UHGV virus genome: UHGV-0299546
Length of the DNA stretch: 35,363 nt
Source of the DNA: a virus
Strand: one strand, 5' to 3'
Position 1 is the stretch's first letter. The number at the start of each line of letters is the position of its first letter. A program made the translations under genes and the position numbers. This document shows, in pieces, positions 5,071-35,363 of the stretch. The notes below the pieces were generated by a model, which had not been told where the DNA came from, made no database searches, and saw only the letters and a list, made by a program, of their open reading frames with translations.

Positions 5071-5190
5071 GTAACCACTATGTACACACAAAAAAACCGC
5101 TTGCCATGCCGCAATCAGTCAGGTTACATTTCCGCTGCACCTCATAAAACGGGTGCCGGGATTTCCACCCCGCTGACAACTACAGCGCAC

Positions 5191-5210
5191 AACCGCGCCA
5201 GCGGTTTTTT
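5191..5210 (+). terminator. Candidate intrinsic terminator
   Basis: 6-bp stem AACCGC/GCGGTT with GCCA loop (5191-5206) followed by T7 (5204-5210). Confidence 0.4.
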
Positions 5211-5229
5211 TGTGCGTACTGTATCGCCA

Positions 5230-5390
5230 CGTCTTTTTCGCACACGAATTATGGTGGGGCGTACGGGGCCGACTTCGGTCGGGCCGGGTTCTGTAGTTGC
5301 CGGTTGTGGAAACCCTGTACGTCTCACCACCCCGAGTTTTCCACCTCTGGATGGTGAGTTTTCAAAACTTGCAACTACAGAGGCCACACC
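5230..5390 (+). other. GC-rich structured non-coding region (candidate sRNA or cis-regulatory leader)
   Basis: Hairpin GGCCGAC-TTCG-GTCGGGCC at 5265-5285 (UUCG tetraloop); inverted repeats CTCACCA/TGGTGAG (5323-5329 / 5351-5357) and CTGTAGTTGC/GCAACTACAG (5291-5300 / 5371-5380), the latter adjoining the RBS of the 5391 ORF. Confidence 0.3.
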
Positions 5391-32620: not shown

Positions 32621-32777
32621 AGCTTCAGCCCCTTGTATCCGTTAAATGATTCGGCAACAATCATCACCCACCACGCGCGCAATCTCACCCCTGCGCCATT
32701 CTCCCGCCACGGCGACAACAAAAAGCAGTAACCCCCTCCGCACGCACATGCGACCATGCCACACAGGGAGGGAGCAG

Positions 32778-33887
32778 ATGACCGACACCACCATGCAATT
32801 GCTCAGTCAGGGCACAGACCCCGTGAAAATGCCGGATTTTGATATTCTCGCGGAGGGTAAAACGCTGTCAGGCGTGGCAGAACGCCTGATGAGCCTGTCA
32901 CTGACCGACAACCGGGGATTTGAGGCGGACCAGCTCACCATCATGCTGGATGATGCGGATGGTCAGTTGCAGCTACCGCAACGGGGCGCGCGCCTGACGG
33001 TTCTCATTGGCTGGAAGGGAGAACCGCTGACAGAAAAAGGCACTTACATTGTTGATGAAATCGCTCACGAAGGACCGCCGGACAGGCTGACTGTTTCAGC
33101 CAGAAGCGCAGATTTTCGGGATGAATTTAACGTTAAACGTGAGGTGTCCTGGCATGATGTGACCGTTGAGCGTGTGGTATCCGCCATCGCTCATCGGTAT
33201 GGTCTGAAACCGCAAATCAGCGAAATGCTGATGGATATCGAAATCGACCACGCCGACCAGACCGAAGAAAGCGACATGTCCTTCCTTACGCGCATGGCGG
33301 AAATGCTGGGCGCAATCACCACGGTAAAAAGCGGCAATCTGTTATTCATCATGCCAGGTGGTGGCGTGAACGCACAGGGCCAGCCGTTGCCCTCGTTCGC
33401 CATTACACGCAGCAGCGGCGATCGCCATCAGTTCCGCATTGCTGACCGCGAAGCGTATACGGGGGTACGCGCCTACTGGCTTGATCTTAATTACGGGAAA
33501 AAGAAAAAAGTCAGCGTGAAACGCCGTAAACCGCCAAAACCCAAAAAGGAGAAAAGCAGCAGCCGTGAAGGTGATTATATGGAAGGCGCGGAAGGCAATG
33601 TGTTTGTGTTACGCAAGACTTATCAGAACGAGCAGGCAGCAAGACGCGCAGCGGCGGCAAAGTGGCAGCAACTACAACGCGGAGCCGCATCATTCTCCAT
33701 CACGCTGGCGCGTGGACGTGCAGAACTCTACCCCGAAATGCATGGCACGGTAACAGGATTTAAAAGCGAGATTGATAATCAGGACTGGATCATTGCAAAA
33801 GCCGAGCACACCATTGATAACAGCGGCTTTACCACGCAGCTTGAGCTTGAGGCAAAAATCCCGGAATGGATAGCGGAAACAGAGTGA
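32778..33887 (+). CDS. D: Tail protein gpD
   Basis: ATG 32778 with GGGAGGGAG RBS; P2 D-like by length and position. Confidence 0.88.
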   Translation: MTDTTMQLLSQGTDPVKMPDFDILAEGKTLSGVAERLMSLSLTDNRGFEADQLTIMLDDADGQLQLPQRGARLTVLIGWKGEPLTEKGTYIVDEIAHEGPPDRLTVSARSADFRDEFNVKREVSWHDVTVERVVSAIAHRYGLKPQISEMLMDIEIDHADQTEESDMSFLTRMAEMLGAITTVKSGNLLFIMPGGGVNAQGQPLPSFAITRSSGDRHQFRIADREAYTGVRAYWLDLNYGKKKKVSVKRRKPPKPKKEKSSSREGDYMEGAEGNVFVLRKTYQNEQAARRAAAAKWQQLQRGAASFSITLARGRAELYPEMHGTVTGFKSEIDNQDWIIAKAEHTIDNSGFTTQLELEAKIPEWIAETE

Positions 33888-33929: not shown

Positions 33930-34190
33930 ATGTTCCGTTGTCCGCTTTGTGGCGCATCTGCCCGTATCCGCACCAGTCGTCCGGAAAATGATTCAAACAC
34001 CGTGCGGCAAAAGTATTACCAGTGTAACAATCTGGAATGCGGCGTATGCTTCTCAACACTGGAAGCTTTCCATAAATTCACATCAAAACACGCCTCCGGC
34101 GTTCACTCATCAGAAGGTATCCCGTGGCATGATCTGCCAGCTTCACACAGGGGAAACAATCAGATGAGTTTGCCTTTATCTCAGAATTAA
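33930..34190 (+). CDS. ogr: Late transcription activator, Ogr/Delta zinc-finger family
   Basis: MFRCPLCGASARIRTSR...YYQCNNLECGVCF resembles P2 Ogr, including the four Cys ligands. Confidence 0.88.
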   Translation: MFRCPLCGASARIRTSRPENDSNTVRQKYYQCNNLECGVCFSTLEAFHKFTSKHASGVHSSEGIPWHDLPASHRGNNQMSLPLSQN

Positions 34191-34199
34191 CAGGCAGAA

Positions 34200-34228
34200 T
34201 TGCCGGAGTAACAAAAAAGCGATAGATT
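34200..34228 (+). promoter_or_regulatory. Candidate sigma70 promoter for the mok/hok-like locus
   Basis: TTGCCG (34200-34205), 17-bp spacer, TAGATT (34223-34228). Confidence 0.3.
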
Positions 34229-34250
34229 ACGCGCGGGTGCCTTTCGGCTG

Positions 34251-34463
34251 ATGGTCGGAGGGAATACCCGAAGGCCGGATGTGGAAAGGCCCCGGAAAAC
34301 ATATCTGTTTAACCGAGGCCCTAACCGCATTACCTTGACAAGTGAAAGGTTAGCGCCTCTCCGGAAAAGGAGCAAGTGCTATGTCGCAAAAATCGCTTAC
34401 GGCCATCACGTTCTGCGTGACGGCAATCCTCATCATCTGGATGCTGCACGGTTCGCTGTGTGA
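34251..34463 (+). CDS. mok-like overlapping reading frame (70 aa)
   Basis: ORF starting upstream of, and overlapping, the hok-like gene in another frame, as in hok/mok/sok loci. Confidence 0.35.
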   Translation: MVGGNTRRPDVERPRKTYLFNRGPNRITLTSERLAPLRKRSKCYVAKIAYGHHVLRDGNPHHLDAARFAV

Positions 34464-34521
34464 AATACGGATGAGTTTCTGGGGAGCGGAGTTTGCGGCG
34501 TTCTTACAGTGTAAGCAGTAA
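34381..34521 (+). CDS. hok: Hok/Gef-family type I toxin (46 aa)
   Basis: Hand-translated MSQKSLTAITFCVTAILIIWMLHGSLCEIRMSFWGAEFAAFLQCKQ: transmembrane helix, then SLCEI and AAFLxCK motifs as in HokA; AAGGAG RBS 7 nt upstream. Confidence 0.7.
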   Translation: MSQKSLTAITFCVTAILIIWMLHGSLCEIRMSFWGAEFAAFLQCKQ

Positions 34522-34610
34522 GGAAACCGCGACGGGGGAGCAATCCCCCGTCAATCGGTTGCCAGGGTAAGGTCGATAAGGTACCCTATCTCACAGACAC
34601 GAACAACAAA

Positions 34611-34632
34611 CCCGCAGCGTAAAGACTGCGGG
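34611..34632 (+). terminator. Intrinsic terminator after the hok-like gene
   Basis: CCCGCAG-CGTAAAGA-CTGCGGG followed by a T-rich tract. Confidence 0.55.
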
Positions 34633-34633
34633 T

Positions 34634-34669
<36 letters not shown>

Positions 34670-34674
34670 AACAA

Positions 34675-34698
34675 AATAGTTAATTAAAATTAACTATT
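34675..34698. repeat. Perfect 11-bp inverted repeat AATAGTTAATT-aa-AATTAACTATT
   Basis: Overlaps the stop codon of the minus-strand ORF; AT-rich palindrome. Confidence 0.7.
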
Positions 34699-34971
34699 AT
34701 GCTCTTGTCTCCATTGCCTAACCATTTCATCAGTAACATCACTCGCATAACAAATCACGTTATATCCTCCGCTACGGCTGTACGCACTACGCCCACCGCA
34801 TCGACTTCCATTTCTTGCATGATTATAAGGGCATGCACAATTTCCGGGATAAGATTCAATAGATTCCCTGATTATTTCTTGTTTAATTTGACTGTCAGAT
34901 TTATTAGTCTTTGCGTACCCCAACACAGACACAAAACAAAGACACATCCCAATAAAAATTTTAACTTTCAT
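34690..34971 (-). CDS. Small signal-peptide protein (93 aa), AT-rich moron-like gene
   Basis: ATG 34971 with AGGGAG RBS; N-terminal MKVKIFIGMCLCFVSVLGYA signal-like segment; Cys/Gly-rich mature part. Confidence 0.55.
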   Translation of the reverse strand: MKVKIFIGMCLCFVSVLGYAKTNKSDSQIKQEIIRESIESYPGNCACPYNHARNGSRCGGRSAYSRSGGYNVICYASDVTDEMVRQWRQEHNS

Positions 34972-35243
34972 ATAAAGCTCCCTGTTAAAAACCAGCAATA
35001 AAATTACTACCAAGTAGTAATGGGAATTTCTGGAACAAAGATCACAAAACAAAACAGCTAATATAAAAGCTATATAATTTTTAATTCCTATAGAAAAAGC
35101 CCAACAACCACGCGACGACACCAAGCAGCCATCACCACATAAACAAAGCCCGCATTAAACAGTGCGGGCTTTAAATCGCTATGGCAATAAGTGGACAACA
35201 CAAAAAATAATCCATTATTTTTCATTGTGTTATGCGGATTTTC

Positions 35244-35273
35244 GCGCCACCCGAAGGTGGCGTGCTTTTATTA
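35244..35273 (+). terminator. Hairpin GCGCCACC-CGAA-GGTGGCG followed by a T-rich tract; contains the right copy of the 15-bp repeat (candidate attR core)
   Basis: Stem-loop 35244-35261, then TGCTTTTATTATT. Confidence 0.4.
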
Positions 35274-35363
35274 TTACTTATCCCTGTCTAACCAGTCGCC
35301 GCTTTCAATTAGCTTTAATCCATCGACGGGTCGTTGATAAACGTACATCCATGCACTCCCGTA

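Follow-up and report, generated by a model that had tools for sequence, protein, structure and literature searches.

A probable hok/sok-type toxin-antitoxin module, apparently without mok, in the cargo of a P88-like prophage

Near the right end of the virus genome UHGV-0299546, whose full 35,363 nt form the window analyzed here, a short hok-like gene lies between the phage gene ogr and the right attachment site. Does this gene stand alone, or does it encode the toxin of a complete type I toxin-antitoxin module, and how might such a module be controlled? We consider it probable that the region holds a complete hok/sok-type module, which a P88-like (P2-family) prophage carries as cargo and which works along the lines proposed below.

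The toxin frame lies at 34381–34521 on the plus strand and encodes 46 residues, MSQKSLTAITFCVTAILIIWMLHGSLCEIRMSFWGAEFAAFLQCKQ. It shows the layout of Hok/Gef proteins, with a hydrophobic stretch at about residues 7–23, SLCEI at 25–29 and QCK at 43–45, and agrees with the conserved L30/C31/E32 and C/Y48 of the Hok logo. The signature by which a first-pass annotation of this DNA had recognized the frame is indeed present (SLCEI; AAFLQCK, residues 38–44), and Pfam PF01848 (HOK_GEF) matches with 29.9 bits against a cut-off of 22, aligning residues 7–44 to profile positions 5–42 of 42. The peptide scores 80.6 bits with PHROG 251 (‘MokW-like host killing’), a label that phage records also give it; it corresponds to gp52 of phage P88, and its RefSeq entry is WP_000078916.1, ‘Hok/Gef family protein’. 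In NCBIfam, the best match is chromosomal HokA of E. coli (NF007290), with 34 bits far below the equivalog cut-off of 89, and the Hok subfamily NF007279 reaches 21.6 bits against a cut-off of 73; consequently, the peptide is neither HokA nor an R1-type Hok as NCBI defines it. Both cysteines are hard-coded in HokA and in the 46-residue peptide (SLCE..., ...CK), so that TadA editing should be unnecessary. The column entropy of the frame by codon position (0.55/0.28/0.75) is a coding signature, 31% of its codon differences are synonymous, compared to 9% in the frame of an overlapping 70-codon ORF, and it is intact in 67 of 69 unique variants. The strong ribosome-binding site noted earlier corresponds to a Shine-Dalgarno sequence, AAGGAG, at 34367–34372, 8 nt before the ATG, which can pair with CCUCUCC at 34356–34362. 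Judged by its sequence, 34381–34521 is a Hok/Gef-family type I toxin gene.

This toxin is not new. It falls into ‘cluster 72’ of a preprint survey of Hok proteins (Escalera-Maurer et al., 2026; bioRxiv 10.1101/2025.08.07.668861) and is identical to 72_1621, cloned for the toxicity assay (plasmid LRP137), which Table S2 includes among the homologs assayed by overexpression; whether called 72_1621, WP_000078916.1, PHROG 251 or P88 gp52, the toxin shows no difference from the peptide described here. According to the text of the preprint, 42 of 45 Hok homologs were toxic, and the three non-toxic exceptions named there do not include 72_1621. We infer toxicity from this exception list, not from a per-construct result. 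The first-pass annotation would have given up its assignment if overexpression were harmless and similarity to the Hok_Gef family lacking; the Pfam match and the exception list, as far as the preprint text goes, speak against both. The same text states that mok, Sok and mRNA structure were deliberately left out of the survey, that several chromosomal hok loci are considered inactive and, in its introduction, that the E. coli chromosomal hok loci gave no post-segregational killing (bioRxiv 10.1101/2025.08.07.668861). Because of the latter, toxin-antitoxin-like anatomy is no guarantee of toxin-antitoxin behavior. Since the toxin family, this very peptide, the toxicity reported for it and the prophage enrichment of hok genes are on record, the discovery value of the locus is small; what we add is the assignment of a predicted sok promoter and the apparent absence of mok, neither of which the survey covered, and what value remains is of a practical and mechanistic kind.

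The module belongs to a P88-like E. coli prophage and is located at its right end, between ogr and attR, from which it is separated by about 725 bp. A repeat search combined with the chromosome junction places the direct repeat CGCCACCCGAAGGTG at 183–202 (attL) and 35245–35264 (attR core), and precisely at 35245 the sequence passes into universal E. coli chromosome (ytfP), which confirms that the module is enclosed by the att repeats. Along 80% of 24.8 kb, the prophage shares 96.6% identity with P88. Deposited records of the phages P88, Chuche, 500465-2 and P884B11 show the ogr-hok arrangement as well, with 95–98% nucleotide identity in the module, and so do 98 of 121 scorable IMG/VR copies, in line with the earlier suggestion of phage cargo. 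From its position inside the att repeats, its presence in related phages and its own predicted promoter and terminator, the hok module is, at the level of sequence, prophage cargo (a ‘moron’) of a P2-like phage. It shares the variable cargo slot beside attR with another small accessory gene, and no PADLOC model matches either the 46-residue peptide or the neighboring 93-residue protein. Of 5,426 complete E. coli genomes, about 1,750 (about a third) contain the 375-nt module, which reaches up to 9 copies per genome, forms an array of three beside serS in the multi-copy strain JNEC-KY172, and is found in several different phage contexts as well as on plasmids; phages of the Sp5 type carry a cluster-72-type hok copy after lom in addition to hokW-sokW at another place. 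When homologs were sought by pattern, the 15-nt pattern GGGTGCCTTTCGGCT yielded only chance matches from unrelated phyla among genome contigs, while a 29-nt degenerate pattern worked on viral contigs. We also looked at HokST of Salmonella SL1344 as a possible relative from a P2-like (SopE-phage) context and ruled it out, as it is plasmid-borne, on pCol1B9, in an unrelated context.

If the gene is part of a complete module, an antisense RNA should be encoded opposite its leader. The first-pass annotation could not locate a sok promoter; we find a predicted one on the minus strand at 34375–34347, with TTGCTC as −35 (34375–34370), a 17-nt spacer and TAACCT as −10 (34352–34347), in a position homologous to the promoters of sokW and R1 Sok. 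Its −35 element overlaps the hok Shine-Dalgarno sequence on the opposite strand, and its layout compares with TTGCCT-17-TAACCT at the hokW locus and TTGCGC-17-TATCCT at an R1-type locus. Among 67 variants, 65 have the −10 hexamer TAACCT, and all have TTGNNN at a spacing of 17–18 nt. At the hokW-sokW locus of the Stx2 prophage Sp5, a promoter mutant of sokW (primers YO-421/YO-422) had lost all antitoxin activity (Takada et al., 2021; PMC8621323); as we read the primer sequences, the mutation, TAACCT to GAGCCT, hits the hexamer homologous to the predicted sok −10. The corresponding hok promoter is predicted at 34200–34228 on the plus strand, with TTGCCG (34200–34205), a 17-nt spacer and TAGATT (34223–34228); all 37 distinct upstream variants have TAnnnT at its −10 position, and in most of them, across genomic contexts, TTGNNN lies 17 nt upstream of it. 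The assignment of both promoters rests on conservation and on homology with the hokW and R1-type loci. A default sigma-70 scan of 34000–34800 called no promoter on either strand, and both are weak relative to the consensus (6 of 12 positions for sok), which counts against the modular interpretation.

The predicted Sok-like RNA would comprise about 59 nt (34341–34283, minus strand, both ends putative) and consist of a free, variable 5′ tail and a long hairpin, GGGCCUCGG...CCGGGGCC, with a UUUCC end. Its fold has an energy of −24.9 kcal/mol (z = −4.15). The lower stem of the hairpin is kept in 27 variants, with no double-compensated pairs in an RNAalifold analysis of the Sok alignment, and the upper stem exists in two self-complementary versions that MAFFT was unable to align in register. 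At least 29 different 5′ tails occur among the 67 variants, and their targets in the leader diversify along with them, as expected of copy-specific antitoxins in genomes with up to nine copies.

On the toxin strand, transcription is predicted to start at G 34235, where position 1 of Rfam RF01794 aligns. The resulting mRNA would begin with a tac-like 5′ end, GGGUGCCUUUCGGCU (34235–34249), which is nearly invariant in the 67 variants and, in the minimum free energy (MFE) fold, pairs with a complementary fbi-like segment near the 3′ end, AGGUCGAUAAGGUACCC (34570–34586); conservation among homologs collapses immediately past 34590. The tac × fbi duplex amounts to −27.4 kcal/mol, compared to −13.0 ± 3.0 kcal/mol for shuffled 3′ segments (34 representatives). 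Both MFE and ensemble folds close the ends of the transcript (folding z = −6.2), so that the tac/fbi closure of hok/sok loci is found here together with a stable 3′ stem-loop upstream of fbi. As the tac/fbi columns are invariant, the predicted closure is supported by conservation and energy, not by covariation, and the same holds more generally: most of the conserved helices are invariant, such that covariation neither supports nor contradicts the structure.

Within this closed transcript, RNAalifold on the 34 representatives retains the tac/fbi ends, the tac stem (with 34281–34290 as an alternative partner of the 5′ end), the GAGGC/GCCUC stem of the leader, the sequestration of the AUG and the 3′ stem-loop. 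The leader stem, GAGGC-CUAACC/GGUUAG-GCCUC (34315–34359; 11 pairs, 98% canonical), encloses the variable target loop of the Sok tail and occupies the position of the mok-SD stem-loop of canonical hok mRNAs, albeit with no mok start codon. The start codon region (34381–34389) pairs with UUGCGGCGU (34493–34501; 9 pairs, 99% canonical), a segment that is nearly invariant even at its synonymous codon positions. The 3′ stem-loop (34530–34553; the first-pass annotation had placed hairpins at 34533–34554) has arms GACGGGGGA and UCCCCCGUC at 34531–34539 and 34544–34552, and its 9 pairs are 100% canonical, four of them with compensatory double changes. By analogy to the last stem-loop of the truncated R1 hok mRNA (PMC9841398), it is likely the stop point of 3′ trimming, and once its 3′ end is truncated, the transcript is predicted to form a tac hairpin and the target stem-loop 34315–34359. 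The terminator postulated earlier is equally found: a Rho-independent terminator, AAACCCGCAG...CUGCGGGUUU plus U-tract, spans 34608–34642, with its stem at 34608–34635 followed by a T-run; it is common to P88-type copies and missing from Stx-phage copies. While the flanks diverge, hardly any variation is seen in the two promoters, the tac/fbi ends or the sok terminator.

Of the two database searches that had been suggested as a check, Pfam places the peptide above its cut-off, as described, and Rfam falls short. At gathering thresholds, Rfam reports nothing in the module region; only a permissive search of 651 nt brings up RF01794, which is named ‘sok’ but models the hok-sense leader, with 45.8 bits (E = 4.7e-9) against a gathering score of 59. 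The same model gives 113.5 bits for hokW and 87.2 bits for an R1-type locus and matches the hok leader in the same orientation.

These results outline a locus with many parallels to known hok/sok systems. hokW-sokW is likewise prophage-borne (Takada et al., 2021; PMC8621323) and shares the 5′ GGGUGC start, the position of the predicted sok −35 over the hok ribosome-binding site, the predicted sok −10 TAACCT within a GGTTAG box, and a 3′ end with a stem-loop and a segment complementary to the 5′ end; its antisense RNA acts as an antitoxin that depends partly on RNase III and Hfq (PMC8621323). The HokW peptide is longer, however (51 residues compared to 46), with 31% identity over 35 residues. 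Plasmid R1 hok/mok/sok, whose Hok/Gef toxin is 39% identical to the 46-residue peptide over 31 residues, has the tac/fbi closure, the GAGGC...GCCUC stem, the position of the predicted antisense promoter and the terminator after fbi in common with the prophage-borne locus.

The main difference concerns mok. R1 requires mok translation for Hok synthesis, and its Sok acts on the mok initiation region (PMC9841398); hokW is preceded by a 70-residue mok (orf74) that starts 57 nt upstream behind a GAGG Shine-Dalgarno sequence; and for hokA, a mokA with the same 3′ end is annotated. We searched all three frames for a Shine-Dalgarno sequence and start codon about 57 nt upstream of hok, opening an ORF across the hok initiation region, with hokW and an R1-type locus (both with GAGG and ATG at −57) as positive controls, and found no such arrangement shared by the 67 variants. 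An in-frame N-terminal extension of hok was not assumed; that mok is always such an extension holds for hokW orf74, K-12 mokA and the IncFII copy that we examined, but for R1 the numbering in PMC9841398 points to an offset of 1 nt. In all 67 variants, a stop codon at −18 or −30 relative to the hok ATG closes the hok frame. An upstream start with an ORF crossing this ATG exists in only 26 of them, and none is common to the variants. In P88 and the majority of the other variants, each of the three frames is interrupted by a stop between −46 and −30, with no start codon afterwards. A conserved ATG at 34279, which follows GAAGG, was considered as the start of an alternative leader ORF and rejected, as the length of that ORF ranges from 1 to 78 codons among the variants.

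The first-pass annotation had assigned the mok-like role to a 70-residue frame at 34251–34463 (plus strand). Such an ORF exists, in a frame other than that of hok and spanning the hok start, and a part of it, ..RLAP.., has its counterpart in the mok frame of hokW, directly before the hok ribosome-binding site. That it is a mok equivalent, with its translation coupled to hok, nevertheless seems to us highly improbable: its ATG is present in merely 10 of 67 unique variants, falls within the invariant tac stem at a distance of 16 nt from the 5′ end of the mRNA and has no Shine-Dalgarno sequence, the stops just described interrupt every frame in most variants, and the low synonymous share speaks against coding. 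We have excluded it as a conserved gene. By sequence, the 46-residue Hok subfamily appears to have no conserved mok frame, unlike the R1, hokW and hokA loci, which is so far undocumented, and hok is probably translated from its own AAGGAG site directly, uncoupled from mok.

How, then, could an antisense RNA silence the toxin? The predicted Sok pairing region lies upstream of the hok ribosome-binding site and stops about 27 nt short of it, which, with no mok in between, leaves the mode of repression unexplained and counts against the modular interpretation. Given an antisense RNA that does not cover the ribosome-binding site and no leader ORF to block, control would have to proceed by RNase III cleavage or decay, or by a refolding switch. 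A tentative extension, to which we give slightly less than even chances, is that the ‘cluster 72’ loci form a mok-independent branch of hok/sok, widespread in P2-like and Stx prophages and controlled purely in one of these two ways, in which the diversification of Sok tails keeps the copies orthogonal.

For the module as a whole, we propose the following course of events. The weak promoter at 34200–34228 would give rise to a hok mRNA of about 400 nt, reaching from 34235 to the terminator at about 34642. In its full-length form, this RNA is predicted to be locked, with the conserved tac-like 5′ end paired to the fbi-like segment 34570–34586, the ribosome-binding site in a small hairpin and the AUG paired with the conserved segment 34493–34501. 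As in R1 hok, slow 3′ trimming back to the stem-loop at 34530–34553 would allow the 5′ end to refold and expose the leader loop at 34327–34347. The conserved antisense promoter at 34375–34347 would meanwhile supply the Sok-like RNA of about 59 nt, whose variable 5′ tail may pair with this loop, leading to RNase III cleavage and/or an untranslatable mRNA. Once the renewal of Sok stops, the stable hok mRNA would be translated; loss of the prophage, transcription shut-off by an infecting phage and prophage induction are possible triggers, the latter having been shown for hokW-sokW. The peptide would then insert into the inner membrane, a target suggested by its family, and kill or arrest the cell.

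A module of this kind could serve its phage in different ways. It is possible, though rather doubtful, that it acts as a lysis or release helper, where induction ends the supply of Sok and Hok damages the inner membrane before holin and endolysin, resulting in more and earlier phage release. In Sp5, sokW RNA is gone after mitomycin C treatment, HokW appears about 1 h before endolysin, and deletion of the locus halves the number of released phages (PMC8621323); Sp5-type phages moreover have the cluster-72-type copy after lom, and in the 98 of 121 viral copies mentioned above, the module is located where the late/tail region ends, beside ogr, which is a late activator gene. The characterized hokW is, however, a different locus with a 31% identical peptide, and the module has its own promoter and terminator, with no visible wiring to late transcription. 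A role in abortive infection or exclusion, or in prophage stabilization by post-segregational killing, where superinfection shut-off or prophage loss depletes the short-lived Sok and releases Hok, strikes us as a similarly speculative option. In its favor, hok genes are four-fold enriched in prophages, the module resides in a variable cargo slot with another accessory gene, and R1 hok/sok on a high-copy plasmid is cited as having lowered T4 plating by 42% and given smaller plaques. Yet the PADLOC defense models did not match, the preprint reports that hok is not enriched near defense systems (bioRxiv 10.1101/2025.08.07.668861), and the lack of post-segregational killing in the earlier tests of chromosomal hok loci, as cited there, also counts against this option.

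The locus might also be a silenced or decaying remnant, whose ORF is intact but became untranslatable with the loss of mok, and which persists by hitch-hiking on successful prophages. The missing mok would fit this explanation, seeing that R1 needs mok translation up to the hok ribosome-binding site to make Hok (PMC9841398), and so would the several chromosomal hok loci that the preprint mentions as considered inactive. Still, we find a remnant improbable: the ORF is intact in nearly all unique variants, its codon-position pattern and excess of synonymous changes indicate selection on the peptide, the promoters, tac/fbi ends and sok terminator have stayed nearly invariant amid diverging flanks, the module has spread into several phage contexts and plasmids, and the joint diversification of Sok tails and their targets is hard to explain if the locus is dead.

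As a hok/sok-type module, the locus has consequences for annotation and for the study of its relatives. Automated pipelines and Rfam miss sok because the leader scores below the gathering score of RF01794, and annotations can gain the predicted sok gene together with its promoter. Stx phages of the Sp5/933W type carry a second, uncharacterized hok locus of the 46-residue subfamily beside hokW-sokW, for which experiments with hokW-only deletions should allow. Finally, the apparent absence of mok in such a common subfamily provides a natural test of whether coupling to mok is obligatory for the control of Hok.

A P2-family prophage lies in the window; 80% of positions 203-25000 align at 96.6% identity with Escherichia phage P88 (genus Xuanwuvirus). 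A direct repeat, CGCCACCCGAAGGTG, occurs at 183-202 and 35245-35264, and since ytfP-end DNA common to each of the 5,426 complete E. coli genomes restarts exactly at 35245, these copies are attL and attR. The late genes D (32646-33887) and ogr (33930-34190; Pfam Ogr_Delta, 52.4 bits) lie upstream of the hok/sok-type module studied here. Its relatives were gathered by a degenerate 29-nt pattern scan of IMG/VR and by hand-picking E. coli loci at 73-99% identity, giving 69 unique module sequences (variants), 67 of them with an intact toxin ORF, and 34 representatives at ≤96.5% identity. In this set, conservation starts at ~34200 and collapses after ~34590, in good agreement with the limits proposed in the first-pass annotation (34200-34632). 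The module had also been suspected to be phage cargo, and indeed it lies inside attL/attR and directly follows ogr in 98 of the 121 IMG/VR copies with enough upstream sequence; eight of these copies follow lom, one gpJ and two another hok copy. Further contexts are a plasmid and a triple tandem array adjoining serS; the latter, in E. coli JNEC-KY172 (L009:1510-2760), consists of three modules with a leader each and differing Sok 5' tails.

The prophage has other features of note. Adjoining Rfam matches above the gathering score, isrK (63.6 bits; 5137-5211, + strand) and C4 antisense RNA (80.5 bits; 5247-5334, + strand), form a P1/P7-type antisense immunity RNA pair within this P88-like prophage. 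Between the hok terminator and attR, a second cargo gene (34690-34971, - strand) in AT-rich DNA encodes a 93-aa protein with a signal-like N-terminal segment (MKVKIFIGMCLCFVSVLGYA...); PHROG 27544 (unknown function) matches it, whereas Pfam and PADLOC give no match. P88 has unrelated DNA at this position, and a query with 34560-35363 was matched over at least 80% in only 9 of the 5,426 genomes. A 9-nt tandem repeat, TTTCTTTTA, with ~4 copies at 34634-34668, starts within the hok terminator's U-tract, at the exact point where the similarity with P88 stops.

Every element that had been listed for the module is present: a 46-aa ORF at 34381-34521 (+ strand; MSQKSLTAITFCVTAILIIWMLHGSLCEIRMSFWGAEFAAFLQCKQ) whose ATG follows an AAGGAG ribosome-binding site at a distance of 8 nt, a GC-rich hairpin (34530-34553), a rho-independent terminator (34608-34642), and a 70-aa ORF in a different frame (34251-34463) that overlaps the hok start. 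The 46-aa peptide is a member of the Hok family: it passes the Pfam HOK_GEF model (29.9 bits, cut-off 22), the search proposed in the first-pass annotation, and matches PHROG 251 'MokW-like host killing' with 80.6 bits. Its scores with NCBIfam models fall well short of the cut-offs, at 34 bits against HokA (cut-off 89) and 21.6 bits against the R1-type Hok subfamily (cut-off 73), and it is 39% identical to R1 Hok and 31% to HokW (BLASTP). Across the 34 representatives, column entropy at codon positions 1/2/3 of the hok frame is 0.55/0.28/0.75, and synonymous changes make up 31% of codon differences in the hok frame versus 9% in the overlapping frame; therefore, the 46-aa frame is the one under selection. 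The module thus harbors a genuine and correctly identified Hok-type toxin carried as phage cargo.

This toxin is already annotated and catalogued. As WP_000078916.1, it bears the RefSeq name 'Hok/Gef family protein' in many genomes, one of which shares 99.8% identity with the window, and phage records list it as 'MokW-like host killing' (e.g. P88 gp52). Of 5,426 complete E. coli genomes, 1,750 contain the 376-nt module, some of them as many as nine times, and protein homologs are found in Escherichia, Shigella, Salmonella and Klebsiella oxytoca. According to a 2026 preprint surveying Hok diversity (bioRxiv 10.1101/2025.08.07.668861), hok is four-fold enriched in prophages, and the identical peptide, 72_1621, cloned as LRP137, belongs to one of the high-abundance 60%-identity clusters. 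Its text reports 42 of 45 Hok homologs as toxic on induction, and 72_1621 is absent from the three exceptions it names. Lack of toxicity and lack of Hok_Gef similarity, which would have spoken against a Hok toxin, are therefore both answered in favour of Hok, the former by the text of this preprint.

In Stx phages, the module has a match of ~81% nucleotide identity right after lom. That this copy is the published hokW-sokW locus can be rejected: in VT2-Sakai (AP000363.1), the hokW deletion-primer sequence lies at ~57.5-57.8 kb, ~13 kb from the module copy at 44532-44906. Sp5-type phages consequently carry two different hok loci, and the window module belongs with the uncharacterised one. Sp5/933W-type Stx phages combine hokW-sokW with a copy of the 46-aa subfamily just after lom (L003:2021-2375), and the published hokW-sokW deletion phenotypes were obtained with this second hok locus still in place.

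The sok promoter, which the first-pass annotation had expected but failed to locate, can be assigned to the - strand, with a predicted -35 (TTGCTC, 34375-34370) and -10 (TAACCT, 34352-34347) separated by 17 nt. The hokW and R1-type loci have their Sok promoters, TTGCCT-17-TAACCT and TTGCGC-17-TATCCT, in the same place; with the window included, each of the three -35 hexamers overlaps a hok ribosome-binding site, and each -10 is part of a GGTTAG/GGATAG box. TAACCT is found in 65 of 67 variants, the other two reflecting a mis-anchored pattern search rather than an altered hexamer; all 67 have TTGNNN as the -35, with a spacing of 17-18 nt. A 'pro-less' sokW promoter mutant (primers YO-421/YO-422) lost antitoxin activity, and sokW in trans partly restored growth (Takada et al., PMC8621323); by our reading of YO-421, its changes would fall in the -10 hexamer. 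The predicted Sok RNA (~59 nt, - strand) starts at ~34341-34339, and ends at ~34283 after a hairpin and UUUCC. Its fold leaves the 5' tail unpaired beside a long hairpin (-24.9 kcal/mol, z = -4.15), whose lower stem is retained in 27 variants. No part of the module varies more or evolves faster than the tail/target region, the 67 sequences having at least 29 versions of the tail; this diversity would prevent cross-reaction among copies within one genome. We consider the sok gene and its promoter a well-supported prediction.

For hok, a promoter is predicted with -35 TTGCCG (34200-34205), a 17-nt spacer and -10 TAGATT (34223-34228), 7 nt before GGGUGCC at 34235; TAnnnT is kept in 37 of 37 distinct upstream variants, even with different flanking genes. 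Position 1 of Rfam RF01794, which models the hok-sense leader despite its name 'sok', aligns to 34235. In the Rfam search that had been suggested, the window stays under the gathering score of 59 with 45.8 bits on the sense strand, as does the Stx copy (33.1), while hokW (113.5) and the R1-type locus (87.2) exceed it. In the predicted fold of 34235-34645 (z = -6.2), the 5' segment GGGUGCCUUUCGGCU pairs with the 3' segment AGGUCGAUAAGGUACCC (34570-34586), a duplex averaging -27.4 kcal/mol in the 34 representatives versus -13.0 ± 3.0 with shuffled 3' segments. RNAalifold retains further helices: 34239-34248 can form an alternative hairpin at the 5' end with 34281-34290; 34315-34326 and 34348-34359 make a GAGGC-CUAACC/GGUUAG-GCCUC stem; nucleotides 34381-34389, around the start codon, pair with 34493-34501, a segment nearly invariant including synonymous positions; and 34531-34539 and 34544-34552 close a 3' stem-loop in which four pairs are doubly compensated. 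When the 3' tail is removed in silico, the 5' end turns into a local hairpin and the GAGGC/GCCUC stem-loop forms. This predicted arrangement corresponds to the tac/fbi, tac stem and mok-SD stem described for R1 (PMC9841398). With most of the helices invariant, it is conservation and energy that speak for them rather than covariation; both the hok promoter and this architecture are predictions that are conserved among the variants.

The counterpart of mok is a different matter. In our controls, hokW and the R1-type locus, a GAGG Shine-Dalgarno precedes an ATG at -57 that reads across the hok ATG; K-12 mokA has a 3' end in common with hokA, and in R1, Hok is synthesised only if mok is translated as far as the hok ribosome-binding site (PMC9841398). 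Among the 67 variants, an ORF reading over the hok ATG from an upstream ATG, GTG or TTG is present in only 26, and none is common to them; a TAG at -30 in 55 variants, and a TAA at -18 in the other 12, shuts the hok frame upstream. In P88, every frame meets a stop between -46 and -30, after which no start codon follows. The conserved ATG at 34279 was discarded as a leader ORF start, the resulting ORFs ranging from 1 to 78 codons, and the GAGG box is kept, but just as one side of the conserved stem. The 70-aa frame proposed to be mok-like does not hold up, with its start in 10 of 67 variants and its low synonymous share; we conclude from these comparisons that it is fortuitous and that the subfamily appears to lack a canonical mok. 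As for R1-type copies, mok in IncFII plasmid pMTY1886 (L005:444-659) starts 57 nt upstream of hok, in frame, and the R1 coordinates (mok ATG 116-118, hok ATG 174-176; PMC9841398) imply a 58-nt offset, out of frame, which points to a 1-nt indel between such copies. In that case, nothing would constrain the reading frame of mok beyond the hok start.

The module is most likely a hok/sok-type type I toxin-antitoxin system. A stable, self-closed hok mRNA would be produced continuously and, by analogy, refold upon 3' trimming to the 34530-34553 stem-loop. Short-lived Sok would pair with the exposed leader loop, so that the mRNA is cleaved, possibly by RNase III as in related systems, or held closed. 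Once Sok is no longer replenished, translation of Hok would begin at its own strong ribosome-binding site, and the toxin would, like its relatives, presumably damage the inner membrane. The predicted pairing region of Sok ends ~27 nt upstream of the ribosome-binding site, which does not by itself account for a repression of hok without mok.

Three roles are candidates. By analogy with Sp5 hokW-sokW, for which a role in lysis and release has been shown and whose deletion halved phage yield (PMC8621323), the module may help with lysis and release on induction. It may likewise exclude superinfecting phages, as R1 hok/sok is reported to act against T4, although no PADLOC model matches the 46-aa peptide. 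Prophage stabilisation is a further candidate, against which stands the survey's statement that chromosomal hok loci tested earlier mediated no post-segregational killing (bioRxiv 10.1101/2025.08.07.668861).

Since the survey explicitly leaves mok and Sok unanalysed (bioRxiv 10.1101/2025.08.07.668861), and a literature search found no paper describing mok-less hok loci, the apparent absence of mok is new, though modest. That a very common Hok subfamily is apparently independent of mok is the sole non-trivial residue of this analysis.
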